From a virus, in the IMG/VR virus record IMGVR_UViG_3300027896_005002, positions 123,488 to 187,487 of that record: 64,000 nt of DNA. One strand, 5' to 3'. A program made the position numbers and the translations under genes. The stretch's first letter is position 1. The number at the start of each line of letters is the position of its first letter. Shown one piece after another: positions 1,569-15,634 of the stretch. Below the pieces are notes generated by a model. The model did not search any database, was not told the origin of the DNA, and saw only the letters and a program-made list of their open reading frames with translations.

Positions 1569-2087
1569 ATGAATTTTCACGACATTATCCAAACTATCGA
1601 TGATTGGGTCGGCGGCGGACTCCAAGGCCAACATGATGACGGTGATCCCACTCCAGATGACAAACTCCTCTTCTACAACACAATCAACAACATACCAATT
1701 AAATACAAACATGGCGGAATTCTATATAGAGGAATTTCTCTACCAAAATCTACTAACCTCAATAACCTCAAAATCTCTGAACTAATCTCATCTTGGTCCA
1801 AATCGCTACAAATCGCACAAGAACACGCACTAAAAAATCCATACACCACTCTCCACATCATCTTCAAAAAATCTATCCACTCAAATCATATTCTCATCAA
1901 CATCGAAGACTTCTACAAAGACTTACCATCTCTCACTAACATCATCCCTCCCAACATCAAACTAAGAATCAACCACTCTACTCGAGAACAAGAAATCATC
2001 TGCAAAAACATATCCCTCTCTATCAATAACATCTACCTCATACATCACCACAACCAATGGCTATCACTACCCCAATTAAATGGATAA
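1569..2087 (+). CDS. hypothetical protein
   Basis: 172-aa ORF, co-directional and adjacent to the upstream ORFs. Confidence 0.3.
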   Translation: MNFHDIIQTIDDWVGGGLQGQHDDGDPTPDDKLLFYNTINNIPIKYKHGGILYRGISLPKSTNLNNLKISELISSWSKSLQIAQEHALKNPYTTLHIIFKKSIHSNHILINIEDFYKDLPSLTNIIPPNIKLRINHSTREQEIICKNISLSINNIYLIHHHNQWLSLPQLNG

Positions 2088-2317
2088 AATTGCAGAAAAT
2101 ATTAAAAGGTTCGAGGTTCAACTGGCCTCACTCAAAAATCATTTGCTAAAAAAATTGGCATAAGCGCTACTCATTTAACCTCATTGAAAAGAAAAAGAAA
2201 AGACCATCTTTAAAACTTATTTGCAAAATATCTAACAAATTCAATATTGATCCAGCTTTTATTGTTACACATACAGATAACTTGCAACTTCTTAGGAATT
2301 TATTAAAAAATCGTTAA
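2080..2317 (+). pseudogene. frameshifted XRE-family helix-turn-helix regulator remnant
   Basis: MDKIAENIKRFEV in one frame, GLTQKSFAKKIGISATHLTSLKRKRK in a second frame, and SLKLICKISNKFNIDPAFIV in a third together give a typical Cro/CI-type HTH. Two frame changes near the aaaagaaaaagaaaag homopolymer run are needed, and the later frames have no start codon. Confidence 0.35.
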
Positions 2318-2439
2318 TACCTACATCAAGTCCTAATTCTTCATAAATAAATCTACTGCGGGCTCTTGCTGACATCAACTCTTTTCTATTTCTTTCTATA
2401 AATACAACCTACCTGTTTCTTATTTTTAAAGCTCAGTAT

Positions 2440-2990
2440 ACCACATGCGCGGGCCCGTGAACGAATCTTCACAACGACGTTAACTAGGCCCTCGCTGGCA
2501 CCTAACAGTACCCCTTCGAGGATAACCCTGCGAATTCGCACGATTCTTAATTGTGGCGGTTACCATAACACCTCTGGGATCTCAGCATTAAGGCAACAGA
2601 GATCTCAAGTAAAGAGATCTCCTCCGAGATCTCATAGGTCTCGGATCTCAAGAATTCGAATCGATGTCGGCTCTGTCGAGTTGAGTTTTTGAGATCCGAC
2701 TCAGTATAAAATTAGACTCAGTGCCATGAAGTAAACGGATTGGAGCTCTTAGTGTAGATAGAGTAGAGTGTAGAGAGCAGAGATAGCACGGTACGCTCTA
2801 GAGAGCTAGTGTAGAGGGATCTAGAGATCTCAGTAGAGCGTGATTTTTGGAGCTATATGGAGAAGGATCTCACTCGAGAGAGTAGTGTGTAGAGTAGTGA
2901 TATCGCGAGATAGAGCGTAGAGATAGAGTGCTTTCTGTTCGACTGCCACATTTAGGCGCTCGACAAAGAGGAGAAGATAGGGAATAAGTG
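2440..2990. repeat. GC-rich non-coding region dense in short palindromes (several GAGATCTC copies; GA-rich TAGAG-like low complexity)
   Basis: No ORF of 60 aa or more. GAGATCTC / GGATCTC recur about 7 times in roughly 300 bp, together with GGGCCC, GAATTC, ATCGAT, GAGCTC, TCTAGA, CTCGAG, GATATC and TCGCGA. The base composition is unlike the flanking AT-rich DNA. Confidence 0.5.
2942..2959 (+). promoter_or_regulatory. copy of conserved motif ACTGCCACATTTAGGCGC (opposite orientation to the other copies)
   Basis: Matches the recurring motif ACNGCCACWTTTGGAACGC. No adjacent TATA element or gene was seen. Confidence 0.25.
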
Positions 2991-3003
2991 AGTAGAGAAG
3001 ATT

Positions 3004-3414
3004 TTAGTAGAGTTTGATGCCGGCTTTTTTGAAGTCCGATTTGAGGACGAAGACTGGGAATAATTCAGGTAGTAGTTGGTTGTTGGTATCGTAGGCTTTT
3101 GTGCCTTTTCTTTTTGATGGCCAACCGACTTTTGAGAAGTTTTTTTCAGTGTAGTTGCCAATGAATATTTCGTTTTTCTTTAATTCAGGATGATGTATCC
3201 TCTTTGAAGTTTTTATAATGATTCTATCGACAATAGCGCTAAGGAGACAAAGCAGAGGGCCAATGATGATGAGGAGTGAAAGAGGACGATATATGATGCT
3301 CGTTATTAGCCAGTGGTATATGATGCCTATTAGAGTGAGGAGAATACCGATTATAAAGATGATTGATGAAAAGAAGAAATCTATGATAATGAGAATTTTG
3401 TTTCTTGAGTTCAT
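3004..3414 (-). CDS. small membrane protein
   Basis: 136 aa with two long hydrophobic segments (IIFIIGILLTLIGII ... LLIIIGPLLCLLSAIV). Confidence 0.35.
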   Translation of the reverse strand: MNSRNKILIIIDFFFSSIIFIIGILLTLIGIIYHWLITSIIYRPLSLLIIIGPLLCLLSAIVDRIIIKTSKRIHHPELKKNEIFIGNYTEKNFSKVGWPSKRKGTKAYDTNNQLLPELFPVFVLKSDFKKAGIKLY

Positions 3415-3420
3415 AGTACC

Positions 3421-3615
3421 TCAGAAGTTCTCGAGATTTTTGAGAATTGTTTCTTCATCCATGTCATCCGGGAGTTCCATATAGTCTGGATTGCTTGGAT
3501 GTAGATGAGAGCGAGCAATGTTTCGTTTGATACGTGCTATTGCGAATATGTTGTAATTTTCCATATTAGTATAATCATGAGATAGCGTAGAAATGGCCAT
3601 TAATTTTTTTAGCAA
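3421..3615 (-). CDS. hypothetical protein
   Basis: 64-aa ORF filling the gap between co-directional genes. Confidence 0.25.
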   Translation of the reverse strand: MLKKLMAISTLSHDYTNMENYNIFAIARIKRNIARSHLHPSNPDYMELPDDMDEETILKNLENF

Positions 3616-3941
3616 TGACAGAAGAATCGTTCGGGAGTTTCTTCACAGTACATTTTGAGGAAGAAGGTGCATTCTTTATGAATTTGGCAGGGTTTGTGTA
3701 ATGATAGTGCTCTTTTGAGTATGTGTTCCATGAGTATGGAGAGTTCAGATCCTTTAAGATGTTTTGTGCTTTCTTCGACCTCTTCTACGCCACCATGAGC
3801 AGAAATTCTGAATTGGTGATCACGCCATGTAAAGCGTATTGCATTTTTTTCTGTTGTGAAGTCGATGTCAGTGATTTGTTTTTGGAATGGTATGATATCC
3901 GGCGTTGTTAGAGTTTTTATAATGTCCGATTGTGAGTACAT
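3609..3941 (-). CDS. hypothetical protein
   Basis: 110-aa ORF in the minus-strand gene array. Confidence 0.35.
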   Translation of the reverse strand: MYSQSDIIKTLTTPDIIPFQKQITDIDFTTEKNAIRFTWRDHQFRISAHGGVEEVEESTKHLKGSELSILMEHILKRALSLHKPCQIHKECTFFLKMYCEETPERFFCHC

Positions 3942-3961
3942 AGTGTTCCTTATAATGTTCC

Positions 3962-4189
3962 TTATAATAAGTCATTAGCTTTGAGATATGTATCGGTAAT
4001 GAATTCCAGAGTGACGTTGCCTTTGCTGTGATTGTATCCGAAGGCAATAGCGTCTCGAATAAGATCTGTTTTTTTAATGCGAAGTTGGTTACGGACTATT
4101 TCAGCATTGTTTATAGCTTGTTGTAGTCGACCTTCGGCAATGTGACGGATGATTTCATCCATTAATGTGACTAATGTTGGTGTTGTCAT
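3962..4189 (-). CDS. hypothetical protein
   Basis: 75-aa ORF. Its ATG overlaps the TGA of the upstream prepilin-like ORF (CATGA). Confidence 0.35.
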   Translation of the reverse strand: MTTPTLVTLMDEIIRHIAEGRLQQAINNAEIVRNQLRIKKTDLIRDAIAFGYNHSKGNVTLEFITDTYLKANDLL

Positions 4190-4338
4190 GGATTGATTCC
4201 GGGGCGATTGCCATAGGGTGCCGATTGGTTAGGGTGATTTACGTGACCGACGACACCAGCAATGGTTATGCCGAGGATAGTGAGGATGACAATGAGTACC
4301 ATGAGTTCGATGAGAGTGAAGCCTTTACGTTTTTTCAT
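4186..4338 (-). CDS. prepilin-type N-terminal cleavage/methylation-domain peptide (type IV pilin / pseudopilin-like), 50 aa
   Basis: Translation MKKRKGFTLIELMVLIVILTILGITIAGVVGHVNHPNQSAPYGNRPGINP contains the class-III signal motif KGFTLIELMV. A GGAGG box lies 6 nt upstream and there are ATGA overlaps on both sides. The segment is locally GC-rich. It is under the 60-aa cutoff of the ORF track. Confidence 0.45.
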   Translation of the reverse strand: MKKRKGFTLIELMVLIVILTILGITIAGVVGHVNHPNQSAPYGNRPGINP

Positions 4339-4622
4339 GAGGACCTCCGATTGAGTAGGTATTTGTGAGTGAAAGCGATAATTTTTGATGGTGATCGAAT
4401 TTCTACTGGGCCATTTTTGGGTACTGTTTTTAAGTAAGCTTTTATAGTATCTGTTAGAGTAGGAAAATCTGGAGATTCTGTAGAATTTTCCATTTTGATG
4501 TCGTGTTTTTTGAGGAAAGATGCCATTGATTGGAGAGTGTCAGTTTCTACAATGAGAGCACATCGTTTGCCAGTACATATGACGGTAGCTTTAGGATAGC
4601 GAATGATTCCTTGTTTAGTCAT
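4335..4622 (-). CDS. hypothetical protein
   Basis: 95-aa ORF. Its stop overlaps the start of the pilin-like ORF. Confidence 0.35.
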   Translation of the reverse strand: MTKQGIIRYPKATVICTGKRCALIVETDTLQSMASFLKKHDIKMENSTESPDFPTLTDTIKAYLKTVPKNGPVEIRSPSKIIAFTHKYLLNRRSS

Positions 4623-4642
4623 TATTTATACCTTATAAATAC

Positions 4643-5074
4643 CTAAGCATTGACTTGGTCCCTGAGTTTGTTGGAAAATCGTTTTGCCTGGACGACAGCT
4701 TGTGCACTTAAAGCATAGAAGACGGAATTTCTGACATTTTTGAGAGCGTCTTCTAATTCTGCTGGATCAAGTTCCTTGAAAGATTCGATGATTTTATTGT
4801 GATTGAAGTCAGGAATATTAGCTACAGAGGTCAACGGATTTTGATGACCGTTATGGTGATGTTGAATGACCGCTGGTGGATGAAAGCCTTTGCGAATTTT
4901 GTAAAAGTATTTGAAATTTTTGGTAACAATGGGTTCTTTATCTTTGGACCGTAAATGATAAATGTGAGTGTAGACAGCACTCGATGTGATGTTGAATCGA
5001 TCCATGAGTTGTTGTTTGGTGACACCATCGGGGCTGGATTGGATATATTCCAGCATTTGTTGATGAAGTGACAT
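4643..5074 (-). CDS. putative winged-helix DNA-binding protein
   Basis: N-terminal LEYIQSSPDGVTKQQLMDRFNITSSAVYTHIYHLRSK resembles a wHTH domain. Confidence 0.35.
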   Translation of the reverse strand: MSLHQQMLEYIQSSPDGVTKQQLMDRFNITSSAVYTHIYHLRSKDKEPIVTKNFKYFYKIRKGFHPPAVIQHHHNGHQNPLTSVANIPDFNHNKIIESFKELDPAELEDALKNVRNSVFYALSAQAVVQAKRFSNKLRDQVNA

Positions 5075-5086
5075 AGAAATACTCCT

Positions 5087-5323
5087 TTATAATAAATATT
5101 TTTCTGCCTTACCGTATGCGTAGTATGATGATGGATGGAATTTTCTCCAAAGTGTGAGAATTCCTACAAAGATCCAAGTTATGGGACCGGTAATGAAAAT
5201 ACATATTTTACGATATTTTGTAAATGCGTTTAGAGGGATAACAATTACAGAGAAGTAGCCTATAAGACCCCAGCAACCGACGCCACTTACAAGATATCGC
5301 CATAAGGGAATTGTTTCGTGCAT
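5087..5323 (-). CDS. small membrane protein
   Basis: 78 aa with two transmembrane-like segments. Confidence 0.3.
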   Translation of the reverse strand: MHETIPLWRYLVSGVGCWGLIGYFSVIVIPLNAFTKYRKICIFITGPITWIFVGILTLWRKFHPSSYYAYGKAEKYLL

Positions 5324-5324
5324 A

Positions 5325-5639
5325 TTATTTCTTTTGAGAAGGTGTTGGTTTAAATTTGATTATTTTACCGTTTTTTTCTTCATAACATATAGGACCTCTT
5401 CCATCTTCACGGACACCGAACATTCCATTGAGAATTCCAAGAAATCCGACTTTTGAAGCAATGTGTGGTTCATGATTATCGACTTGGATTGTTGGATGTC
5501 TCTCGAGGGCTTTGCGACAATTCTCTCTGTGTTTTATTAATTCATTAGCGCATACCGAATCGAGTTTTAAGATTTCATTTAGCAAGTCGCAGACATCTTT
5601 GACGGTAATACTTTTTTTAACGGTAATACTTTTTGCCAT
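5325..5639 (-). CDS. conserved hypothetical protein, paralog of 38070..38381
   Basis: About 70% identical to the ORF at 38070..38381 (shared DVCDLLNE ... ANELIK.REN ... ERHPTIQVD.HEPHI.SKVGFLG.LNGMFGVR.DG.GPICYEEK.GKIIKFKPTPS). The N-terminus carries a tandem 18-nt duplication (KSITVKKSITVK). Confidence 0.5.
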   Translation of the reverse strand: MAKSITVKKSITVKDVCDLLNEILKLDSVCANELIKHRENCRKALERHPTIQVDNHEPHIASKVGFLGILNGMFGVREDGRGPICYEEKNGKIIKFKPTPSQKK

Positions 5640-5763
5640 AATTCACCTTTTCTATTTGCCGGAAAGCCAGCTGACAAAGACTATTGGACCTATGAATAAT
5701 AGTACGATGATGATGGTTGTTCTTATAGGATGTTTTTCAAAGTCCATAAATGTGCAATTATTT

Positions 5764-5781
5764 CCCTCAAAATGTGGCAGT
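5764..5781 (+). promoter_or_regulatory. copy of conserved motif (CCCTCAAAATGTGGCAGT)
   Basis: Recurring intergenic motif, about 125 nt upstream of the minus-strand gene that starts at 5639. Confidence 0.3.
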
Positions 5782-5817
5782 CGAATTGTCTCTTTCTCTC
5801 TTGGCCGATGGAAGTGG

Positions 5818-6453
5818 CTATGCTTCGGTTTTTTCTTTTGCTTCTTTGTCGGCTTTCTTTTTCTTTTCGATGTATTGTTTGGATTTTTCCGCAACCGTTA
5901 TAGTGGCCAGTTTCTTTAAGACGTCGAGGACCTTGGAGTCATTTTTTTCGAAAAGTTCTGTAAAAGATTTTTTGTCCAGGATGAATTCCACAGGTGATTT
6001 TGATTGGACCGAGCATTTGCCGAATTTGGAAGCAGATGTGGCCAAGAATTTTTGGTCCAATGTTTTGTCGATGCCGAAGTAGAATATGCAACGGCTTTTG
6101 CCATTGACTGATTTGCTCTTTTTCCGGGCCTTGAAAGCGATGACACGGAAGTCTTTGCCGGTTTCGGATTTGAGGCCAAAGATGATTTTGCCGCATTTGT
6201 ATCCGAGTTTGGTCAGAGGTTTATTGTCGATTGTAAGGGTTAAGAGATGGCTTTCAAAGTCCGTTACGATTTGTTCCATTGGAGGCCGTTTGTATTCGAC
6301 CTTGGTTTCGTCAACATCTTTTTTCGGCTTCTTTTCAATGGTTGTTGCAGTGGTTACGACTTCCTTTTTCTTTTTTTCCGGTACCGGTTTTTTCTCCGGT
6401 TTTTCTGAAGCAGTTTTGTTTTTGTCGTCAATGACGTCATTGAGTTCGGGCAT
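5818..6453 (-). CDS. lysine-rich hypothetical protein
   Basis: 211 aa with KKPVPEKKKKE and KKKKADKEAKEK tails. Confidence 0.4.
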   Translation of the reverse strand: MPELNDVIDDKNKTASEKPEKKPVPEKKKKEVVTTATTIEKKPKKDVDETKVEYKRPPMEQIVTDFESHLLTLTIDNKPLTKLGYKCGKIIFGLKSETGKDFRVIAFKARKKSKSVNGKSRCIFYFGIDKTLDQKFLATSASKFGKCSVQSKSPVEFILDKKSFTELFEKNDSKVLDVLKKLATITVAEKSKQYIEKKKKADKEAKEKTEA

Positions 6454-6940
6454 GGTAGCTCCTATTTGAAGTGTGGGAGAAGTATAAAAACCGTGCTATT
6501 TGATTTCTGATCCGTTGATCGAAATTTCTTCGATGTCGTATAATATTGATAGCTTGTTTGATGAGTTCTTTTTGGCGGTCAATGAAAGTTTGTCGTATTG
6601 CCGGTGGTACACCCTTCATTCTTTGAATTGTTTTTAAATATCTTTTTCTTCGAGGTAAGATGCCAAATTGAATACTGGTTAATGTTTGCCGATTAATAGC
6701 TCGTTTTAGAATGAGCCGGAATAAGGGGATATCATTCATCGCTTCTAAGATTTCCTTTATAAGACCCATATTATGTCGAGTCATATCATTCGATTGTTCT
6801 AAAGCTTCTAACCTTTGCAAAATTTCAAATTGAGTTACTTGACTACTTTGCTTGGTTTCAATGATGATTTGTGACTTATCCCCTAATTTTGCAAAAATAT
6901 CAGGAATTGAGTCTTTTTTATTTGTAACATTCTTTAGCAT
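6437..6940 (-). CDS. hypothetical protein
   Basis: 167-aa ORF in the array. Confidence 0.35.
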   Translation of the reverse strand: MLKNVTNKKDSIPDIFAKLGDKSQIIIETKQSSQVTQFEILQRLEALEQSNDMTRHNMGLIKEILEAMNDIPLFRLILKRAINRQTLTSIQFGILPRRKRYLKTIQRMKGVPPAIRQTFIDRQKELIKQAINIIRHRRNFDQRIRNQIARFLYFSHTSNRSYHARTQ

Positions 6941-6969
6941 ATTTTTATAATCACCATTAAAGTCGTAGA

Positions 6970-7185
6970 TTATTCACATTTCAACGTTTCCAAAAATTCT
7001 TGAACTGAGTGAGTCGTTTCCAATAAAATTTTTAGATCAAGGACATCATCTGTAGTGATTCTTGGTCCGTCTAAAAACTTCGCATGTTCTTCGGCAAATA
7101 TTATACTCATTGGATTTTGATCTGATATTTGTTTTGACATTTCTGCGTACATTTCACTAAGTCGATCAAAAAAATTCATACTCAC
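6970..7185 (-). CDS. hypothetical protein
   Basis: 71-aa ORF. Confidence 0.3.
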   Translation of the reverse strand: MSMNFFDRLSEMYAEMSKQISDQNPMSIIFAEEHAKFLDGPRITTDDVLDLKILLETTHSVQEFLETLKCE

Positions 7186-7231
7186 TCCCTATTATTATAA
7201 TCAATTAATTCCATAAAGAATGTCCACATAT

Positions 7232-7819
7232 CTACGCTACTTTTTTGACTTTGATCCAGTCATTAACATCGATGCCTCGACTTAAATGTGATTTGTAAAT
7301 GCTGAATTTTTTCTTAAGGACAATGCCTTCTTCAACTGAAAGATTTCTTTTGATGATTAGGTTATATAGATCCAGGAAATTGTCAGTATATTGACGAATG
7401 GAAAATACTTGGTTCTTATTTAATGGAGAAATAATCTCTGGTGCCGTCAAAAAGTGGCTATAGTATTTCCTTCTTTCGACCAATTGTAATGATCTCAGGT
7501 CCTTTCCGTTGTAATAAGGCGTATCAAAAATGACTATAATGTTTTTGAAATCTGTCGACCGGAAATTGACTAATTCACCGTCAAAAACTGTGTCGTTTGG
7601 AATTTTCTTAAAAGCATCGACAAAAACTGAAGAATTAAAATCAATAATTGTTCCATGTCGATTGAATAATTGAATTTTGTTGGCAATTTTGAAGATAAGA
7701 CAACGCCAGCCATTGTATTTTATTTCGGCATCCCATTGTGGATTTTTGCTCAATTTGATAAAGTAGTCCGCATTGGGCCATAGCCGAATTGGTTGTGGCG
7801 GATAAAAAAACTGTATCAT
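7232..7819 (-). CDS. minimal ligase-superfamily nucleotidyltransferase (ATP-dependent ligase-like, no OB domain)
   Basis: Motif I AEIKYNGWR (a KxNG variant), motif III FDGELV, motif IV EGIVLKKK, motif V DWIKVKK. Only 195 aa. Confidence 0.5.
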   Translation of the reverse strand: MIQFFYPPQPIRLWPNADYFIKLSKNPQWDAEIKYNGWRCLIFKIANKIQLFNRHGTIIDFNSSVFVDAFKKIPNDTVFDGELVNFRSTDFKNIIVIFDTPYYNGKDLRSLQLVERRKYYSHFLTAPEIISPLNKNQVFSIRQYTDNFLDLYNLIIKRNLSVEEGIVLKKKFSIYKSHLSRGIDVNDWIKVKKVA

Positions 7820-8019
7820 AAACCGCGCTCAATTTCGATTTTTCTGGCTGCATCTAAAAAATGTGACCTTAAAGGATCAGTTAATTCTTGGGCTTTGAGT
7901 CTGAGTCGACGAACGTACTCTATCGGATCTGTGCGCAATAATTCCTGATTTGATTGTGCACGATTTTTAATGAATTCAGGATTTAAAACAGCATTTTTAG
8001 GGATTTCCCATTGTTCCAT
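7816..8019 (-). CDS. hypothetical protein
   Basis: 67 aa. Its stop overlaps the start of the downstream ligase-like gene. Confidence 0.3.
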   Translation of the reverse strand: MEQWEIPKNAVLNPEFIKNRAQSNQELLRTDPIEYVRRLRLKAQELTDPLRSHFLDAARKIEIERGL

Positions 8020-8029
8020 AAGTACTCCT

Positions 8030-8413
8030 TTATCCTTTTAGAACCTTTTTGTATTTTACAATTTTTAAAATTGGTTTGAAAAAGTTTGGTTTTTTAATGA
8101 TAGAGCCTTCATGAGGCAATAATAAAGCCACTGCACTTTTATGCCGTTTTCCATGAAGATGAGATTCTGCATTTCCTTTTGGCATTGATATTTTACAAGT
8201 ATCACAATAAAATTCATGTTTGGGATCGTATAACGGTTCTTGCAGAGGTGGAAATACTTCATCATAAATTGTTTGAAATTCTGCCCGTTCATTTGCAGTG
8301 CATTCCATTTCCCAAGCATCAGCACCACAATAATCAATTATTCCTTTTGCGAGTTGTAAAGCTCTTTTGAGTTTTTCAAGTAAAGATTCTTTGATTTCGC
8401 CTTGGATATTCAT
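8030..8413 (-). CDS. C2H2 (U1/matrin-like) zinc-finger protein
   Basis: FYCDTCKISMPKGNAESHLHGKRHK fits C-x2-C-x12-H-x4-H. Confidence 0.4.
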   Translation of the reverse strand: MNIQGEIKESLLEKLKRALQLAKGIIDYCGADAWEMECTANERAEFQTIYDEVFPPLQEPLYDPKHEFYCDTCKISMPKGNAESHLHGKRHKSAVALLLPHEGSIIKKPNFFKPILKIVKYKKVLKG

Positions 8414-9531
8414 GCGTCCTCACTTTTATATTTTAATTGGGTCATTTTGCATTCACTTACATCAACGTCATCTCTTATTTCTTTGAAGCTTGGTTGGTAT
8501 AAGCAACCGTTTCGATATGCGTAAAGGTATTTAATTTCGACGACTGATCCAATAGGTGGGTGCCGACTGCAACTGCAATAGCCGACAAATTCTCGATCAC
8601 CAGCTCCATTGAAAAGTTCCATTCCTATTGAGGCTTTTCCAGTACGACCTTCAACGACGATGACTGAACATTCGGCATAAAATTTGAATTTGAATTGATC
8701 GAGACCTTTTCCGGGAGAGAAAATTGCTGACATTTTCTTGAAGACGATTCCTTCTTTTCCTTGGGCCTCGAGTTTGTTGTAAAAAGCGACTTTAGCTGCT
8801 TTGCCGACAATGATGTCAAGGATTTTGATTTTGGGACCGAATCGTAATTGATTAAGAATATGATATCGTTGAAGATAAGGCAAAATGCGCAAATTCATTG
8901 TACCGAGTTCGAGGATGTCCCAAGTATAAAAAATGCCGTTGACTTGTTCACCATCGATGAGAATATTGGGATTGATATTACTTAGCGATGCTTTGAATTC
9001 CGAATCACATTCACAACCGATTCCTTTTTTATTTCGAACAGTTAAAATACCGTTGGTCAAATGAAGAGAAAGATGCTTACCGTCCTTTTTTTCTTGAGCA
9101 CAAAAATCATCGTCATCAAGCAATCGAGCAAGGTCATCTTCATCAGTTTCTGTAAGTAATTGAGGGATGAATCCAATGTCGATGTCATCGTCAGGTGCTT
9201 CCCTTCTTTCTGCAGCTTTTCTTCGATTTTCTCGAATTAATTTGAAAGCCTCGGTCGCTGTCCGGAATTTTACTGGATCGTTTTGGCCAGTTTGACTGTC
9301 TTGGTGACACTGTCTTACGATTTTGCGAAAGGCTGTTTTTACTTCATCCTCTGTTGCCGTTGGTGATACACCAATTACCGTGAAGGCTGATGTCGCAGTT
9401 AGATTTTTAGCAGAATCTGAATTTTTAAGAGCTTCACTAAAAATACCGGCCCATTGATTGGGATTTCCTTTTTCACCAGTATATGTACCGTATTTTGATG
9501 GTGATGACCAGATAGAAGATTTTTTAGCCAT
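8410..9531 (-). CDS. ATP-dependent DNA ligase with N-terminal J-like domain
   Basis: Ligase motif I EKKDGKHL, motif III FYTWDILEL, motif IV EGIVFKK. The N-terminus (EDEVKTAFRKIVRQCHQDSQTGQND..FRTATEAFKLI) is J-domain-like with HQD in place of HPD. The start is taken as MAKKSSIW, which has a GAGGAG box 8 nt upstream. Confidence 0.6.
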   Translation of the reverse strand: MAKKSSIWSSPSKYGTYTGEKGNPNQWAGIFSEALKNSDSAKNLTATSAFTVIGVSPTATEDEVKTAFRKIVRQCHQDSQTGQNDPVKFRTATEAFKLIRENRRKAAERREAPDDDIDIGFIPQLLTETDEDDLARLLDDDDFCAQEKKDGKHLSLHLTNGILTVRNKKGIGCECDSEFKASLSNINPNILIDGEQVNGIFYTWDILELGTMNLRILPYLQRYHILNQLRFGPKIKILDIIVGKAAKVAFYNKLEAQGKEGIVFKKMSAIFSPGKGLDQFKFKFYAECSVIVVEGRTGKASIGMELFNGAGDREFVGYCSCSRHPPIGSVVEIKYLYAYRNGCLYQPSFKEIRDDVDVSECKMTQLKYKSEDA

Positions 9532-9773
9532 TATCGAACTCCTCTGCATGCATGTTCACGAGTTCCGATTGCGAATTTTTTCATGACTTCTTTTGATTCC
9601 CGAGCTAAAGGTCCATGCCATTGGGACATATTGGCCAAAGAATAAAGTATTTGCGTTTTTAATCCATCAGTTCCATATTCATCGATTGCTCGAGGAATGG
9701 CCTTCAAATATGCAGCACCGATAGGATCCCTTACATTTTCTATAGCATTTTTGATGGCTTCATCGAGTGTCAT
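9531..9773 (-). CDS. hypothetical protein
   Basis: 80 aa, coupled to the downstream ligase gene. Confidence 0.3.
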   Translation of the reverse strand: MTLDEAIKNAIENVRDPIGAAYLKAIPRAIDEYGTDGLKTQILYSLANMSQWHGPLARESKEVMKKFAIGTREHACRGVR

Positions 9774-9785
9774 AATGTGGTAGTC

Positions 9786-10058
9786 CTATTTTGCTTTAAT
9801 GATTTCAACCGGAACGCCTTCGCAACTATCATGTTGTTGTCTATCAATTTTTGCATATTCGGTTTTGAGAGTTTCGATGATAGATGCCATTTTTTTCATG
9901 ATTACAGCTTTGTGATTTGCGCCTTTTCCCTGATTCCACATTTCACCGCCGATTGTAACGGCGTATTTTGCTCCACCATCATCATCCGATTCCGTAATAT
10001 TTACCCGAAATTTTCGAGTCTTTGTTACGAATACTTCAACCTTTGCTTTTTTAGCCAT
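9786..10058 (-). CDS. hypothetical protein
   Basis: 90-aa ORF. Confidence 0.3.
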   Translation of the reverse strand: MAKKAKVEVFVTKTRKFRVNITESDDDGGAKYAVTIGGEMWNQGKGANHKAVIMKKMASIIETLKTEYAKIDRQQHDSCEGVPVEIIKAK

Positions 10059-10229
10059 GATTTCCTCACGCCATCACTAAGGTTTTTGATTTTCTGGTTT
10101 TAGTCCGCTCATCCTTTTTGTACCAGCGATATGCCGTTGATTTGCTGATCGGTTTCGTGTTCGGTGAACAGGTTCCGTATTTTGAAGGCGATGTCCAAAT
10201 GCTGTTTTTCATAATTTCCTCTTTTTTTT

Positions 10230-10508
10230 TTAAGCATGAACCAAAGCTTGTTTCGTGTAGGAAGCCAAGGACCTACGACCGAATTTCCTACCTTGAACGC
10301 CGATAGATTCCAGGTGCTTGCAGTGGCCATGACGAATATTTCCACGGCAGGAACAAGTCCACCATTGGGCGCCAGGAGCATTGTCGTAAGAAACCATGTA
10401 AAGTTGATTGGAAGAAGACGACCGGACTTTGAATCTGACTTTGTAACGATCTGAATCCGGAAGAACCTCGACCGCTGTGTGCTGAATCCTGCTCATTAAA
10501 TCGTTCAT
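10230..10508 (-). CDS. SWIM-type zinc-finger protein
   Basis: WWTCSCRGNIRHGHCKHL fits the CxC...CxH SWIM pattern. AAGGAG SD. The bipartite promoter motif lies upstream. Confidence 0.35.
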   Translation of the reverse strand: MNDLMSRIQHTAVEVLPDSDRYKVRFKVRSSSSNQLYMVSYDNAPGAQWWTCSCRGNIRHGHCKHLESIGVQGRKFGRRSLASYTKQALVHA

Positions 10509-10540
10509 ATTTGCTCCTTATGGTTTATTGTTTCCTTTTT

Positions 10541-10594
10541 CCTATTAATTATAATCATGTTGACAGCGCGTACTGCGTTCAAAATGTGGCCGTT
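10541..10594 (-). promoter_or_regulatory. bipartite promoter-like element (GCGTTCAAAATGTGGCCGT plus TGATTATAATTAATAGG)
   Basis: The upstream motif and a TATA-rich extended -10-like box show the same spacing as at 13233, 14282 and 20461. It lies upstream of the minus-strand gene that starts at 10508. Confidence 0.45.
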
Positions 10595-10650
10595 CTTTCT
10601 ATGTATTTTTAACGTAGAAATACCGCCATTTTTTGACGACGGAAAGGAAA

Positions 10651-11421
10651 TCACCTATCAAGAATTGTAGTCTTTGAAATTGTTCCGCCTTGAGGTATTG
10701 AAATCAAATAACAGCCGTATTCTTTGCTATATTGACGGTGTATTTTGATGCCAGTTTTTTCCGAAGCGTATTCAATTGACCTATATGCATATGGAGGAAC
10801 TGCAATACTTCCATACATGGCATTCTTTTCCAAAAAGTCTAAAAGTTTGACGTAAAAATATGTTCCTTTTTTGGGAAGTGGGAAAAGAGTATTCTCAGTA
10901 GTGAACCTAGACTCTGTTCCTTGAACCAATTGATGTTTCCATTCTTTCCAATCGCCACTGATGATCCAATTGCACGGTTTTGGATAACCTTCAATGTGAT
11001 AGACACAAACATCAAGACCTGAAAGCGTTTTTACAATTGATCGAGAATAAAAATTGCCCGGTCGATTTTCATCATAACCTTCTAATCGATCCAAGAATTG
11101 GAAGTGGTCAACTTCAAAAACTTCGCCATGTACAAGATAATTGAAAGGATCTTGAAGGGTAATGAAGGGAAATCCTACCGTAAAATTAAACATTCGACCT
11201 CGGATTTTATCTTTACAAATAAATTTGCCATTAGAATTTTCCATTACCTGATAATTACTTAATCCACGTAAAAGAGTCCCATATACAAAGACGAGTTTCT
11301 TCATACTTTTATCTCGATTTTTTTGAAAGATTTTTCGATCATTGGCCTTACAATAACCGCAATTTGTGGCACTTTCTTGTGACCGATGTTTATGACCTTC
11401 ACGACAAAGATATATTGACAT
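10651..11421 (-). CDS. gamma-glutamyl cyclotransferase (GGCT/AIG2-like) domain protein with N-terminal zinc ribbon
   Basis: LVFVYGTLLRGLSNYQVM matches the GGCT N-terminal motif, followed by a conserved E (HGEVFEV). The C-terminal segment AYRSIEYASEKTGIKI is shared with the ORF at 22519. Confidence 0.55.
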   Translation of the reverse strand: MSIYLCREGHKHRSQESATNCGYCKANDRKIFQKNRDKSMKKLVFVYGTLLRGLSNYQVMENSNGKFICKDKIRGRMFNFTVGFPFITLQDPFNYLVHGEVFEVDHFQFLDRLEGYDENRPGNFYSRSIVKTLSGLDVCVYHIEGYPKPCNWIISGDWKEWKHQLVQGTESRFTTENTLFPLPKKGTYFYVKLLDFLEKNAMYGSIAVPPYAYRSIEYASEKTGIKIHRQYSKEYGCYLISIPQGGTISKTTILDR

Positions 11422-11547
11422 TTTTGATGTCCTCCATCATTTGATTTCGAAGAAATGTTTCCAAAGCTAATGCTGTTGAATGCGATATATGACCAGCTTT
11501 TGCAAGATCCCAAACACCCATAATTTGAAGAAGATATTTTTTGATAC

Positions 11548-11808
11548 TCATATCTGTTCCAAATAAGATTTGATTGATCTTTTGAAAATTTCCGTAGCTT
11601 CTTCTGCTCGCAAAGCTGGTACAACGCCACCATGAGATTGAAAAGCAGCGATGACATTGTCATTTTTATCTTCAATGTAGCCGTAGTAATGGCCTTGACC
11701 GAATTCACTTACCCTTTGCGTGAGTTTGCAGTAAAAGCCGTCGATTTCCTGAATGAGAGTGTGAAATGTAATTTTTTTGTCGAATATTGTCGCAAGGTCG
11801 TCGCTCAT
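11548..11808 (-). CDS. hypothetical protein
   Basis: The start is set at the MSDDLATIF methionine so that ATG overlaps the upstream TGA (ATGA). Confidence 0.3.
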   Translation of the reverse strand: MSDDLATIFDKKITFHTLIQEIDGFYCKLTQRVSEFGQGHYYGYIEDKNDNVIAAFQSHGGVVPALRAEEATEIFKRSIKSYLEQI

Positions 11809-12047
11809 AATGTGGCCGTACTTTCTTTGAACTGTCCGTAAGAGTCGCAAAAATTTTCCCAAACTCCAATGGGCAATTCAATGGTCGTTTTTTCGGAACC
11901 TTCGATAGCAATTGCTTTGACGATGGGCTCGCATAATTTCAGGAAGTTTTCAAATTCCTGTTTCATGCAAGTATAATCTTCAAAGCTGACGTATTTGCCA
12001 TTGTTTTCTTGCATCATGCAAGTTTTTACATCAAATCGTTTTACCAT
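11805..12047 (-). CDS. hypothetical protein
   Basis: 80 aa. GAGGAAAT SD upstream. Confidence 0.35.
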   Translation of the reverse strand: MVKRFDVKTCMMQENNGKYVSFEDYTCMKQEFENFLKLCEPIVKAIAIEGSEKTTIELPIGVWENFCDSYGQFKESTATL

Positions 12048-12054
12048 GATTTCC

Positions 12055-12468
12055 TCAGTTTAATTCATCGGGATTAGCGGTTTGCGATTCTTCGGCCGGC
12101 AAATTCGAAATCAAAGCATCGATTGCCTGTTGCCGTTCCAAAACCATCGCCTGATACGCTTCATAATCGTTTTGCGCCGGATTGGTCACCTTATAATCTT
12201 TCGTATAGGTGTGACCGGTTTTGCCATCCTCATTGACCCAAATATGAAAGCCGGCAGCATCGGCCTTTTTCGAAAGAACGCGTAGCTTGGAGCATTTTTC
12301 CTCGATCTTCGTATTGATCTCCGATTGCGTATCTTCATTACCGTCAGCTTCAGCAAATTCCACTTTGTGCTGGCCAATGGCTTTGTTGAGCATCCTATAG
12401 GCCTTGATGATTTGCAGGTTCGGGTCATCCGCGATTCCGCTTTTTGATACGATTTGTTTCGTCGCCAT
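12055..12468 (-). CDS. hypothetical protein
   Basis: 137-aa ORF in a locally GC-richer stretch. Confidence 0.35.
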   Translation of the reverse strand: MATKQIVSKSGIADDPNLQIIKAYRMLNKAIGQHKVEFAEADGNEDTQSEINTKIEEKCSKLRVLSKKADAAGFHIWVNEDGKTGHTYTKDYKVTNPAQNDYEAYQAMVLERQQAIDALISNLPAEESQTANPDELN

Positions 12469-12505
12469 ATCTTCTCCTTGTAAATGTGAACTGTGAACTT
12501 TTTTT

Positions 12506-13201
12506 TTACTTCGGATATTTGACCGCCGGTTGATACCTGCAAGCGGTTGTGACTTTTTCTACCGTTTCTTTTTGACCTTCCTCGATTGATTTCCGCATCT
12601 GGAAGTAATTGTACGAAAAATCTTCCGAGGGTTTCACCGTTTTGACTACATTGAAAAAATCGTTGTATCGATCAGCGAGAAGCGTTTTCAAAGCTTCAAC
12701 TTTTTCCGGGCGAAGGGTTGCGGTTTCAACAACCGTAAACATGATCTGGAATTTTTCCTTGAAGATTTTCTTCAAAGGTTCTTCCATTGCGATATCCATC
12801 GCGGAATATGATTCGCGGAATTGAATCTGCATCTGGGGTGGTTTGTAATTTTCTTCATCATCTTTGTCGGCACCTTTGATGTAAACCGTTTTGTAAAACA
12901 TATCATCGTTGAAAGCTTTTTCTTTTGCTTTTGCGGCCTCTTTTTTCAGAACATCTTCGAGCTCCACTAATTCCGTTTGCAAGTTTTCGATGTTCCGGGA
13001 AATTTCGATGCACTGATCAACGACGACTGTATAGGGTTTTTTTCCTTTATGATCTTCGGTTACCAAAGTGCAATCATCATCGAGAATGGGACTTTCAATA
13101 ATAAGTTTATCCTTATTGCGGTCGTTCTGGTTCTTTTTGCTACCAGCCAACTTAATGGCAGGCAAATCTTCAATTACGACCGGTGCTGCTTTTTTCTTCA
13201 T
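12506..13201 (-). CDS. hypothetical protein
   Basis: 231 aa. AAGGAGA SD. Promoter motif upstream. Confidence 0.4.
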   Translation of the reverse strand: MKKKAAPVVIEDLPAIKLAGSKKNQNDRNKDKLIIESPILDDDCTLVTEDHKGKKPYTVVVDQCIEISRNIENLQTELVELEDVLKKEAAKAKEKAFNDDMFYKTVYIKGADKDDEENYKPPQMQIQFRESYSAMDIAMEEPLKKIFKEKFQIMFTVVETATLRPEKVEALKTLLADRYNDFFNVVKTVKPSEDFSYNYFQMRKSIEEGQKETVEKVTTACRYQPAVKYPK

Positions 13202-13232
13202 ATATTCTCCTTTAAAAAAGTGATTTCCTTTT

Positions 13233-13284
13233 CCTATTTATATAATCAGTCATTTTTCACAAACCGCGTTCCAAAAGTGGCTGT
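13233..13284 (-). promoter_or_regulatory. bipartite promoter-like element (CCGCGTTCCAAAAGTGGCTGT plus TGATTATATAAATAGG)
   Basis: Conserved motif pair upstream of the gene that starts at 13201. Confidence 0.45.
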
Positions 13285-13409
13285 CGACCTAACTATTTAG
13301 TTATCCATGTTTTAGAAGAATCTGAATGGTTGTATATAGAACATAAATAAAAGTCGATGATAAAATGACACCAAAGATGAATTTGTATAATTTTCTCATA
13401 TTGCTCTCC

Positions 13410-14009
13410 TCAAGCGTTGTTTACTTTTAAGAATGCACGACAATTTGGACATCGAAATAACCAATATTCTATTGATGTGGGATCGTTTTCGTCTTTTATT
13501 TTAACAGTTATCAAATCTTTTTTTGCATATTTTCTACCACAAGCCGGACATTCATCTCTTTTTATTTGTAAATTTCCTCTATTTGTTTCCCATACTTGTC
13601 CAGGTTTGCTGTTTGATTGTATCTTTCTCCAAACTTTACCAGATGCCCAGTCATGCTGTGATTGTTGATATCGTTCAAACCGTTGTCGAGCTTGTTTTTC
13701 AACTCGATAAATCGCATTGAGTAAATTTGATCGCCAACCATTTACTCTGAGAACCTTTATAGTCCTTATCCAACCAATTCTATCTGTGATATTTACCGCG
13801 CATATGCGAATTGCATCCTGACCTTTTCCGCGACCGTTACCATTTTGTTTTGAAATTGATGAATATACTTTTATAATAATTTTTGGATTCTCAATCAAGA
13901 TTTTTTCATATACATATTCTCTGGTGGTTGAAGGTCCAGTAGCTTCTTCAAAAAAAAGATTTGCCATTACAACATTCATCTCGTTGAGAGTTATTACCGT
14001 ATAATGCAT
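13410..14009 (-). CDS. hypothetical protein with C-terminal zinc ribbon
   Basis: CPACGRK...CPNCRAF. AAGGAGAAAATA SD. Confidence 0.35.
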   Translation of the reverse strand: MHYTVITLNEMNVVMANLFFEEATGPSTTREYVYEKILIENPKIIIKVYSSISKQNGNGRGKGQDAIRICAVNITDRIGWIRTIKVLRVNGWRSNLLNAIYRVEKQARQRFERYQQSQHDWASGKVWRKIQSNSKPGQVWETNRGNLQIKRDECPACGRKYAKKDLITVKIKDENDPTSIEYWLFRCPNCRAFLKVNNA

Positions 14010-14274
14010 ATTTTCTCCTTATCGTCTTTTTGGTCTTTTGGAATTGTAACAAAGGAGTGCAGTAAATTACATCTTTTGTTTGCTTCATAATACGAGCGTG
14101 ATCAACCAACATATCAAATAGTTGGTAGCGACTTTCAGCAGATTTTGTTGTTTGAGAATAATTTCTATAAAATTTATCTGGAAAGGGATCATAAAGTACT
14201 TCAACTTTAACAGAAAATCTTTTTGTTTTAAAAGCTACTTCCGGAATTTTTGCCGTCAATTTAATTTTTTTCAT
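13948..14274 (-). CDS. hypothetical protein
   Basis: The start is set at MKKIKLTAK, with an AGGAGA box 7 nt upstream. The longer listed ORF would run through the promoter element. The 3' end overlaps the next gene by 62 nt. Confidence 0.35.
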   Translation of the reverse strand: MKKIKLTAKIPEVAFKTKRFSVKVEVLYDPFPDKFYRNYSQTTKSAESRYQLFDMLVDHARIMKQTKDVIYCTPLLQFQKTKKTIRRKYALYGNNSQRDECCNGKSFF

Positions 14275-14281
14275 TGTTTTT

Positions 14282-14410
14282 CTCCTATTATATATGATCA
14301 TGTCACTACGTGTTGTGCGTTCCAAATGTGGCTGTAGAAAAAAACAAATCTACGACTGCCATTTTTGGACCGCAATTAGTGGATTGATATGATTATATAA
14401 AATAGGAGAA
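14282..14410. promoter_or_regulatory. divergent promoter region with the bipartite motif in both orientations
   Basis: On the minus-strand side: TGCGTTCCAAATGTGGCTGT plus GATCATATATAATAGGAG. On the plus-strand side: GACTGCCATTTTTGGACCGC plus GATTATATAAAATAGGAG, ahead of the gene at 14438. Confidence 0.5.
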
Positions 14411-14437
14411 TGAAAACAATAAAAAAGGAATGATTAT

Positions 14438-15634
14438 ATGATAACAATCGGATGTGACCCAGAGTTCCTAGTACTCGGGCCCGATAACATGGTTAAAGGC
14501 TTCAACATCGGTCACAGTTGTCCCGCTGGAAATATTGGCACCGATCATGGTGGATCGGTTGGAGAATTAAGGCCAATGTATGGAACGCCCCGTCAGGTAA
14601 CCGAAAATATTCGGGAACTTTTTCGAATCATTCACACCAAAACTCCTCGCGATAAAATTGCTGCCGGTGGCGGTGAAAAATACGGTCATTCAATCGGTGG
14701 TCATATTCACTTTGGTGGAGTACAATTGGATCATACTTACGAATCTTGCACACGACAAAGAAATCGCGGACGAGTGAGACCCTTAACACTTGATCGTTCC
14801 AGGACAGTTCACAAATTAGTTTATATGCTCGATTATTATCTCGGTCGTCGGTTGAAAAAAATTGACGGCGGACAACGACCAAAATCAGCAAATTACGGTC
14901 GTTTATCTGACATCGAATCAAAAGGAACGGATCGATTCGAATATCGCACACCACCATCGTGGTTATCCGATCCGCAATTGACGGAATCCACTTTGGCAAT
15001 TTCATATCGGATCGCGGAAATGTGGAAAGAAAATCCGCGATGTTTCGATGAAATCATCAACCGAAACAAAAGCATCGCCCGAAAAAAAGAATATGGAGTT
15101 TTAATTCCCAATTCTGGTGATCAAAGAAATTACTACTCTGAACAAGTTGCAGCTTTTAAGCGAATAGCTTTTTCGAAAACATACCGAATGGACAATGCCA
15201 ATTGTTTGGACACATGGTTATCCGGTTCTCAAATCGCACAAATTGTCGATCGAATGTCGAAGAAGATTGCGTTGCAAATTTGCCAGATGAAATTGATAAC
15301 AAATCAGGACGGCATAGAATCAGAATCAGTCGTAAAAGTTTTGCGGTTTGCGGTACCTGAAGTAAAAATCATAGCACAGAGATTTAATTATCATCATGCT
15401 TTCCGGTCCCGAATTAAGGATGACACAATTTACATCAGCAAAAATTTGAGACCGTATCTTAAGGTAAAACGCGGGCATCACTTCCGAGTAAAATTTGCCC
15501 AATTTGACAACAACACTGTGGTTTATAAAACCGGCAACAGCAACATTTTGAATGAAGTAATAACAATTTTCGAAACCGGTGCAAGGAAAAAGCTTCGCAA
15601 AGCTGATGCAAATTTGATACCGGCTCAGTCATAA
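14438..15634 (+). CDS. putative amidoligase (glutamine-synthetase-like COOH-NH2 ligase, Amidoligase_2-like)
   Basis: N-terminal GCDPEF acidic strand and a GGHIHFGG His-rich loop recall GS-like amidoligases. This call is tentative. Context includes GAT-II (18641) and GGCT (10651) genes. Local GC content is higher than the flanks. Confidence 0.35.
   Translation: MITIGCDPEFLVLGPDNMVKGFNIGHSCPAGNIGTDHGGSVGELRPMYGTPRQVTENIRELFRIIHTKTPRDKIAAGGGEKYGHSIGGHIHFGGVQLDHTYESCTRQRNRGRVRPLTLDRSRTVHKLVYMLDYYLGRRLKKIDGGQRPKSANYGRLSDIESKGTDRFEYRTPPSWLSDPQLTESTLAISYRIAEMWKENPRCFDEIINRNKSIARKKEYGVLIPNSGDQRNYYSEQVAAFKRIAFSKTYRMDNANCLDTWLSGSQIAQIVDRMSKKIALQICQMKLITNQDGIESESVVKVLRFAVPEVKIIAQRFNYHHAFRSRIKDDTIYISKNLRPYLKVKRGHHFRVKFAQFDNNTVVYKTGNSNILNEVITIFETGARKKLRKADANLIPAQS

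Follow-up and report, generated by a model that had tools for sequence, protein, structure and literature searches.

A 64,000-nucleotide (nt) stretch of viral DNA (positions 123,488 to 187,487 of IMG/VR record IMGVR_UViG_3300027896_005002; hereafter the window) carries on its minus strand, at 4186..4338, an open reading frame (ORF) for a peptide of 50 amino acids (aa), MKKRKGFTLIELMVLIVILTILGITIAGVVGHVNHPNQSAPYGNRPGINP, which in all likelihood is a real gene for a pilin-type membrane peptide. Judged from its sequence and from structure prediction, the peptide is a 'headless' pilin: it has the leader and the N-terminal helical segment (alpha1-N) of a type IV pilin, and neither the continuation of that helix (alpha1-C) nor the globular head. 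We put the probability at roughly 45% that it is a headless type IV pilin mimic that acts on the type IV filaments of the host within the inner membrane.

The N-terminus of the peptide, MKKRKG/FTLIELMV, has the form of a bacterial class III signal, with a basic leader, Gly-1, Phe+1 and Glu+5. It scores 30.3 bits against the Pfam family N_methyl (PF07963; gathering cut-off 21.2; E 2.8e-7), with peptide residues 1-25 aligning to positions 1-25 of the 27-position profile. An earlier note on this DNA had described a canonical class III prepilin signal followed by a hydrophobic helix and had suggested a profile search for the motif, which upholds that description. A regular-expression scan of all six frames of the 64 kb found no second prepilin motif followed by a hydrophobic stretch, and on sequence grounds the Pfam score and this single occurrence in the window rule out chance as the source of the motif. 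Kyte-Doolittle hydropathy reaches its maximum, 2.95, over residues 12-30, and AlphaFold2, run without an alignment, predicts a single helix at residues 9-34 (core confidence, pLDDT, 90-95) followed by coil at residues 35-50 (pLDDT about 60-66). The leader ending in Gly-1, the Phe+1/Glu+5 pair, a hydrophobic helix of at least 20 residues and a score above the Pfam cut-off together place the peptide in the prepilin-type class.

What follows the helix sets the peptide apart from known filament subunits. With the type IVa pilins and the pseudopilins of type II secretion (PilA, MshA, GspG/H, ComGC), it shares the basic leader, Gly-1, Phe+1, Glu+5 and alpha1-N, but it lacks alpha1-C, the beta-sheet head and the disulfide loop. 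In place of the globular alpha-beta head domain of structural pilins and pseudopilins, there are 16 predicted-coil residues rich in Pro, Gly and Asn. The NCBIfam equivalog models for these proteins (PilA, PpdD, GspG/H/I/J, ComGC-GF) match only the first 20-39 residues of the peptide, at 10-26 bits versus cut-offs of 44-400, and a sequence search of the PDB yields four N-terminal matches, among them MshA, Geobacter PilA-N and PilA. The description of the peptide as 'minor-pilin-like' in the earlier note is thus not borne out, as only a leader, an alpha1-N helix and a 16-residue coil are predicted, with no head domain.

The gene is translationally embedded between two others. Its ATG (4338..4336) overlaps the TGA of an upstream 95-aa gene as ATGA, its own TGA (4188..4186) overlaps the ATG (4189) of a downstream 75-aa gene in the same way, and the start codon is preceded at 5 nt by a Shine-Dalgarno (SD) motif, GGAGG. 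A 5-mer SD core stands 5' of 25/62 long ORFs in the window, compared with 2.8% of random 17-mers, and the host therefore uses SD-led translation. Two other kinds of pilin were considered and rejected: a Flp/Tad-type (type IVc) pilin, as the Flp motif is absent (Leu rather than Tyr follows Glu+5, and no Flp family is matched in Pfam at E<=1), and an archaeal pilin, by the bacterial Glu+5 signature and the SD-led translation.

A codon log-odds model trained on the 44 long ORFs of the window gives the minus-strand peptide frame +19 bits and the remaining five frames of the interval negative scores. The same DNA is covered by a plus-strand ORF (4174..4368), and one could suppose that this is the true gene and the pilin-like frame an antisense accident. 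That ORF does have an ATG start and an open frame of 64 codons, but it scores -9.9 bits in the codon model, has no Pfam match and opposes a long array of co-directional minus-strand genes, whereas the minus frame has a Pfam match above the curated threshold. We regard the chance that it is the true gene as negligible and reject it as a gene on its negative codon score and the lack of a Pfam family; it is the antisense shadow of the peptide gene. The boundaries and strand of the 50-aa ORF, its strong SD, its ATGA overlaps with both neighbours and the spurious nature of the plus-strand ORF are all as the earlier note had given them. JGI gene calls on contigs of three samples (3300003852, 3300027902 and 3300003861) include an identical 50-aa protein, and the trio of 95-aa, 50-aa and 75-aa genes is kept in variants in which its flanks differ, which likewise supports the reality of the gene.

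From what is established about class III signal peptides, the peptide would insert into the inner membrane of the host with its N-terminus in and its tail out, and the host's prepilin peptidase would cut after Gly6 and N-methylate Phe7, yielding a 44-residue product that resembles the alpha1-N segment of a pilin. Such a product would keep the part that is seen by the assembly platform, the peptidase and the pilin-sensing kinases and would lack the part that stabilises the filament; with the recognised segment kept and the filament-building part lost, it would act in the membrane as a poison substrate or a decoy. It might compete for the prepilin peptidase or the assembly platform, terminate the chains of growing filaments, or present a false 'pilin pool' signal to pilin-sensing kinases. 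The infected cell would then bear fewer or altered type IV pili, or fewer or altered pseudopili of type II secretion or competence, and the phage would benefit through superinfection exclusion or through a smaller loss of progeny on infected cells and debris.

The earlier note had raised the possibility of such interference, be it with competence, type II secretion or type IV pili, and the idea has precedents in the literature (PMC12952977, PMC8764522, PMC7196804). Sztanko et al. (Cell Rep 2026; PMC12952977) report a truncated PilA ('P-PilA', the N-terminal ~60 residues) in six virulent Pseudomonas phages and suggest either that it is incorporated without phage-binding sites or that it inhibits assembly, both as proposals only. 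Like P-PilA, the window peptide is encoded by a large, non-temperate-looking phage and retains of a pilin just the N-terminal helix and none of the globular domain, and the role proposed for both is the blocking or masking of type IV pili. It differs from P-PilA in being shorter (a 50-aa precursor, about 44 aa when mature) and in having a Pro/Gly-rich coil rather than an alpha1-C continuation. This likeness is drawn from the published description and not from a sequence alignment; given its phage genome and an N-terminal helix alone within at most ~60 residues, the peptide is an additional member of the phage-encoded truncated pilins that have already been noticed.

Two further systems bear on the question of whether so short a segment could act by itself. 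In Caulobacter, the 17-residue transmembrane segment of PilA (CIP) alone binds the kinase PleC, and when the CIP peptide is added, susceptibility to a pilus phage falls by 77% and surface attachment by 71% (PMC7196804); as an analogous case the authors cite the sensing of pilin by PilS within the membrane of P. aeruginosa. The window peptide would essentially be such a pilin transmembrane segment, the analogy being one of function only: CIP derives from a Tad/type IVc pilin with another signal motif, and the window peptide has no known kinase partner. PfsE is an inner-membrane peptide of roughly 30 residues without a pilin-like signal. This small Pf phage protein suppresses type IV pili by binding PilC and provides superinfection exclusion (PMC8764522), and it is likened to the window peptide, as a small phage-encoded protein directed against type IV pili, by function and not by sequence.

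The same N-terminal signal could also serve a structural purpose. As a mini-pilin, the peptide would be polymerised into host pili or pseudopili, in mixed filaments or at the tip, and would alter their surface instead of blocking their assembly, such that competing pilus-binding phages no longer adsorb or the filament gains a new property. Incorporation of viral pilins has been described for prophage FimU mimics, which enter the pilus tip and block tip-binding phages with pilus function intact (PMC12952977), and for the haloarchaeal virus SNJ2, whose own pilins are built into filaments by the machinery of the host (PMC12426801). The window peptide keeps the assembly residues Glu+5 and Phe+1, and Geobacter PilA-N ('geopilin domain 1') is among the solved structures nearest to it; that protein is likewise unusually short and mostly N-terminal helix but is a chromosomal structural pilin and not a phage gene. 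However, the mature peptide is predicted to have only about 28 helical residues, with no alpha1-C or head, and in type IV pilus structures it is through alpha1-C and the head that subunits stay bound to one another beyond the hydrophobic core. Geobacter PilA-N, short as it is, is 61 residues long when mature, has the alpha1 helix in full and pairs with PilA-C. Near the window peptide there is no partner gene for a 'head' that bears a pilin signature. We therefore consider a mini-pilin improbable and return to the peptide as a mimic acting in the membrane.

The homologues that can be found for the peptide are confined to its N-terminal part. A word-indexed homology search with the peptide gives zero matches, and exhaustive phmmer against 1.84 billion representatives gives 10 weak ones (E<=1e-3), every one via the N-terminal helix and in a cluster without a name, with no relative of tail residues 35-50. 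Back-translated tail patterns have no confirmed relative in one genome each from 185,579 species, and all confirmed matches to the peptide in that collection end at or before residue 45. The top N-terminal matches there come mainly from Planctomycetota and Firmicutes, a dominance that is not diagnostic of the host, since it reflects the MKKRKGFT pattern and how common such proteins are. Among 50,697 phage records, tblastn finds nothing for the peptide, the helix probably being masked by the low-complexity filter, and megablast with 5 kb around the peptide gene finds no match among phages. With residues 1-60 of P. aeruginosa PilA as the query, tblastn matches only three of these records, each annotated as a full-length prepilin: two of 'Acinetobacter phage MD-2021a' (~240 kb) and one of Salmonella enterica.

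Short pilin-like genes are nevertheless present in other viruses. We scanned IMG/VR for DNA encoding GFTLIELMV and reconstructed the ORFs at the 74 viral loci obtained. Complete pilin-like ORFs of at most 85 aa occur at about 20/74 loci (about 15 distinct sequences), with examples of 43 aa (L071), 54 aa (L030/L045), 56 aa (L031) and 61 aa (L060), the last two from contigs of 162 kb and 109 kb; longer pilin-like ORFs, of 98-142 aa, lie on viral contigs of 424-548 kb. All five of the short viral peptides submitted to Pfam (43, 54, 56, 61 and 81 aa) pass the N_methyl threshold, and several of the short ORFs have 4-nt overlaps with their neighbours, as the window peptide does. Almost all pilin-like ORFs recovered from cellular genomes are at least 94 aa long, the two apparent short exceptions lying within about 165 nt of the ends of the fetched loci, where they may be cut short; the viral and cellular lengths come from different search patterns, and the comparison is indicative only.

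Six PHROG families contain the N_methyl module (phrog_13280, 11263, 10597, 11596, 27437 and 3433), which the short families among them share with the window peptide. The profiles of phrog_13280, 11263 and 10597 are 59-72 aa long; phrog_3433 is annotated as 'pilin', and the other five are of unknown function. The best match of the peptide is phrog_13280 (E 2.6e-9, residues 3-37). All of the pilin-like peptides match all six families by the N-terminus only, and the window peptide covers profile positions 1 to ~36 of phrog_13280, 11263 and 10597, short of full-length similarity. For contrast, a genuine member, the 75-aa protein of L020, aligns to phrog_11263 over positions 1-72/72 (E 1.4e-45). 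By sequence, the window peptide is a singleton in the class of short phage pilin-like genes, with a unique tail.

On a wider reading, which we find doubtful, headless pilins would be a widespread and repeatedly evolved phage device, enriched in viral relative to cellular genomes and acting purely within the membrane. Mimicry of alpha1-N would then switch off or reprogramme the host's type IV filaments without the making of a filament subunit, and the 50-residue peptide, coupled to two orphan proteins, may be its minimal natural example.

Two other groups of short pilin-like genes were seen in the IMG/VR scan. On three unrelated viral contigs, a pilin-like gene encoding 61-78 aa, acidic at the tail, shares 4 nt with the beginning of a gene for a calcineurin-like phosphoesterase (L018 6308-6544, L042 8-232 and L060 7588-7782); the partner matches Pfam Metallophos (E 3e-10 in L018) and may be Mre11/SbcD-like, and the pairing is conserved. 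A pilin-like family of ~80 aa, distinct from the window peptide, is found on viral contigs of 5-374 kb (L012, L017, L023, L026, L038, L041 and L051) and has the signature MKQRGFTLIELMV…SWGINGMTE(S/M)RCI(E/D)GYKF…DEFGKGV(R/K)C with two conserved Cys.

When the locus is compared with those of related phages, the peptide gene falls in a variable segment. We examined ±10 kb around the gene for a DnaJ-ligase fusion in six distinct genomes (L122, L123/124, L125/126, L127, L128 and L129-131), in which the DnaJ-ligase protein is 48-56% identical to that of the window. By tblastn, the window genes from 5818 to 15634 have clear counterparts there, including the 211-aa gene, the 167-aa and 195-aa ligase genes, the 92-aa, 137-aa and 231-aa genes and the COOH-NH2 ligase gene. 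None of the nine genes at 3004..5639 has a tblastn match in these syntenic regions, and no pilin motif occurs in any frame of them. Closer to the window, one genome (L001) is identical over the 12 kb compared (window 2,001-14,000). Two 99%-identical variants (L002/L003) retain the 95-50-75 trio, with a 46-aa gene inserted upstream of it and different genes downstream; their 75-aa gene departs from the window sequence in its final 7 nt alone (3962-3968), inside a 12-nt deletion (3957-3968). The deleted segment is one unit of a 12-nt tandem duplicate at window 3942-3968 (unit TTATAAGGAACA, minus strand), which contains the SD of the 110-aa gene.

The absence from the six relatives and the varying flanks of the trio therefore define a strain-specific accessory island with fast turnover, to which the peptide gene belongs. 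The earlier note had held that a lack of conservation in related genomes would count against the ORF. At ~50% protein identity, in six genomes, conservation is indeed lacking, and we take this to argue for an accessory, strain-specific gene and not for a non-gene.

Base composition bears on where the gene may have come from. The peptide ORF has a GC content of 47.7%, versus 33.8% for the window and about 38% locally, and lies within the top 3% of 153-nt windows. The GC-rich patch described in the earlier note is thus real but modest, as the amino-acid composition and the codon usage of the neighbours already predict 41.5%, which explains about half of the excess. The GC content of third codon positions (GC3) is 0.52, compared with 0.375 predicted, and the neighbouring 211-aa gene has a GC3 of 0.50 as well. 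All five Leu codons are CTC (5/5 versus 12.4% in long ORFs; 0.124^5 ~ 3e-5), and among gene chunks of the same size the gene ranks at the 5th percentile for overall synonymous-codon likelihood. Base composition and codon usage would fit a gene captured from a source richer in GC and, with the absence from relatives, weakly suggest the horizontal acquisition that had been proposed; the scan of 185,579 species genomes turned up no donor, whether by matching DNA or by a match that extends further.

These observations also bear on whether the gene functions at all. It could be a remnant, the 5' end of a captured host pilin gene whose tail is read-through junk in an island undergoing turnover. The atypical GC3 and Leu codons, the absence from the six relatives, the Pro/Gly/Asn-rich orphan tail and the lack of any polymorphism that would reveal selection are what one would see in such a case. 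However, the gene is preceded by a strong SD, and its start and its stop each fall exactly into an ATGA overlap with the adjoining gene, a fit that implies adaptation of the peptide gene to its operon. The negative scores of the other five frames, the independent recurrence of short pilin-like ORFs across viral lineages (often with 4-nt coupling) and the failure to find a donor gene also speak against a remnant, which we judge to be distinctly unlikely.

A functional gene need not be directed at pili. The pilin-like N-terminus could be a mere signal-anchor of a generic small membrane protein with a target unrelated to type IV filaments, in which case it might serve in lysis timing, in membrane depolarisation, in blocking DNA injection by other phages, or in anchoring the 95-aa and 75-aa products. 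Two more island genes, of 78 aa and 136 aa, are predicted to encode small membrane proteins with 2 transmembrane segments apiece, the peptide is translationally coupled to two soluble orphan proteins, and its tail is without similarity to any pilin, all of which would suit such a protein. The full class III signature, with its Pfam E-value of 2.8e-7, is nevertheless more specific than a signal-anchor requires, no lysis genes are recognised nearby, and there are no PADLOC matches. We consider a generic membrane protein unlikely and prefer the pilin mimic.

Several points weigh against the preferred reading of the peptide as a mimic acting on host type IV filaments. Its tail is a low-complexity orphan, and the score against NCBIfam TIGR02532 is just under the cut-off (16.2 versus 16.3). 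The six related genomes lack the gene in their syntenic regions, and the variants available show 0 substitutions in it and hence no sign of purifying selection either way. The difference in length between viral and cellular pilin-like ORFs carries the limit given above. A host filament system and a prepilin peptidase are presumed, and no multi-transmembrane ORF of the size of a prepilin peptidase occurs within the 64-kb window. The roles given to truncated phage pilins, this peptide included, are all proposals.

Table 1. Coordinates of the peptide gene, its parts and associated features in the window.
Feature	Position	Strand	Description	Basis
Headless prepilin-like peptide gene	4186..4338	(-)	50 codons; stop 4188..4186	ORF list, Pfam, codon model
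Leader MKKRKG, residues 1-6	4321..4338	(-)	Predicted prepilin-peptidase cut after Gly6, giving Phe+1 and Glu+5	Cleavage predicted from sequence
Probable hydrophobic alpha1-N-like transmembrane helix, residues 7-34	4237..4320	(-)		Hydropathy, AlphaFold2, PDB matches
Coil tail HPNQSAPYGNRPGINP, residues 35-50	4189..4236	(-)	Predicted to face the periplasm/exterior, in place of the pilin head	
Shine-Dalgarno motif GGAGG	4344..4348	(-)	5 nt 5' of the peptide ATG, within the 3' end of the upstream gene	
Upstream 95-aa gene	4335..4622	(-)	No assigned function; stop overlaps peptide start (ATGA)	
Downstream 75-aa gene	3962..4189	(-)	No assigned function; start overlaps peptide stop (ATGA)	
Strain-specific accessory island	3004..5639	(-)	Nine small co-directional genes	tblastn absence in six relatives
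DnaJ domain-ATP-dependent DNA ligase fusion	8410-9549	(-)	Clade marker	Pfam

The accessory island lies downstream of the clade-conserved 211-aa gene (5818-6453), and its genes encode, in order, proteins of 104, 78, 143 (helix-turn-helix), 95, 50, 75, 110, about 60 and 136 aa. The 95-aa protein finds only itself among 5.8 billion clusters and has no Pfam, PDB or PADLOC match, and its AlphaFold2 model (pLDDT 44) is unusable for fold comparison. The 75-aa protein has no PDB sequence match, PADLOC reports nothing relevant for the nine island proteins, and IMG/VR scans with three neighbouring proteins return no relatives. The two small predicted membrane proteins of the island (78 aa at 5087-5323 and 136 aa at 3004-3414, both on the minus strand) match no family.

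The window shares an MVP-like (Major Vault Protein-like) gene with ENA contig ERZ27247850 k141_2484546, of 415,903 bp, of which it is part, occupying by offset about positions 123,411-187,410. To judge from its sequence content, the replicon is very probably a phage, as the earlier note had assumed, and belongs to a clade of huge tailed phages with a genome of at least 416 kb. This assignment draws on the large contig, the DnaJ-ligase relatives and the PHROG and Pfam content (42 PHROG families match window ORFs at E<=1e-5), the phage's own capsid and terminase genes not being among its grounds. The DnaJ-ligase fusion has 929 homologues (E<=1e-5), many on 100-470-kb contigs, and in a 466-kb relative its gene adjoins a Baseplate_J gene and genes for giant structural-looking proteins. 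It is a handy marker of this huge-phage clade (loci L122-L131); some related ligases have a WGR domain in place of DnaJ.

The gene content of the window is typical of the accessory regions of jumbo phages by Pfam and PHROG. It includes two ATP-dependent DNA ligases (one the DnaJ fusion), an RNA ligase, RlaP, a Thg1-like enzyme, a nucleotidyltransferase, HD hydrolases, a phiEco32-like COOH-NH2 ligase, a GATase, a radical SAM enzyme, GmrSD_N, TnpB and a vault-shoulder protein; no tRNA genes are found in the 64 kb and no Rfam families in the whole window. The vault-domain protein (821 aa, 30747-33212, minus strand) matches the Major Vault Protein shoulder (E 7e-21) and Vault_3 (E 7e-10), which is unusual for a phage genome, and the same protein is on the 415,903-bp contig. 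The TnpB-like gene (59074-60312, plus strand; OrfB_IS605, E 1.7e-13, with a Cas12f1-like TNB domain) is followed by a 235-aa ORF without an assigned function. ORFs of 85-150 aa in the window match Response_reg (E 3.6e-19), RRM_1 (E 7e-17), Thg1 (E 7e-20) and DUF7873 (E 2.8e-69), and the related genome L129 has a HisKA/HATPase_c histidine kinase gene near its DnaJ-ligase gene. Such two-component parts of the phage may bear on a pilin-sensing scenario; no link between them was found.

Between the plus-strand genes (45-2087) and the minus-strand array lies a non-coding stretch of ~560 nt (window 2400-2960), which at 43-52% GC is richer than its surroundings. It contains at least 4 copies of a GAGATCTC palindrome and direct repeats of the TAGAG(T/C)GTAGAGA type, matches no Rfam family and has an RNA fold z-score of only -1.9; it may serve in regulation or in replication.

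For virulence and gene transfer, bacteria draw heavily on type IV pili, type II secretion and competence pili, which are also major receptors for phages. Phages are known to shut these systems down with unrelated small proteins such as Tip, Aqs1 and PfsE and, as recently described, by putting a minor pilin of their own (P-FimU) in place of the host's. With 44 mature residues, a canonical signal and no head, the window peptide offers a clean minimal case for asking whether alpha1-N by itself suffices to poison filament assembly, to saturate the prepilin peptidase or to mislead the kinases that sense pilin. If it does not act in this way, the peptide gene would be one more orphan accessory gene of a huge phage. 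If it does, agents against pili and virulence would have natural templates in such peptides, and headless pilin genes would mark the hosts of uncultured huge phages as piliated.

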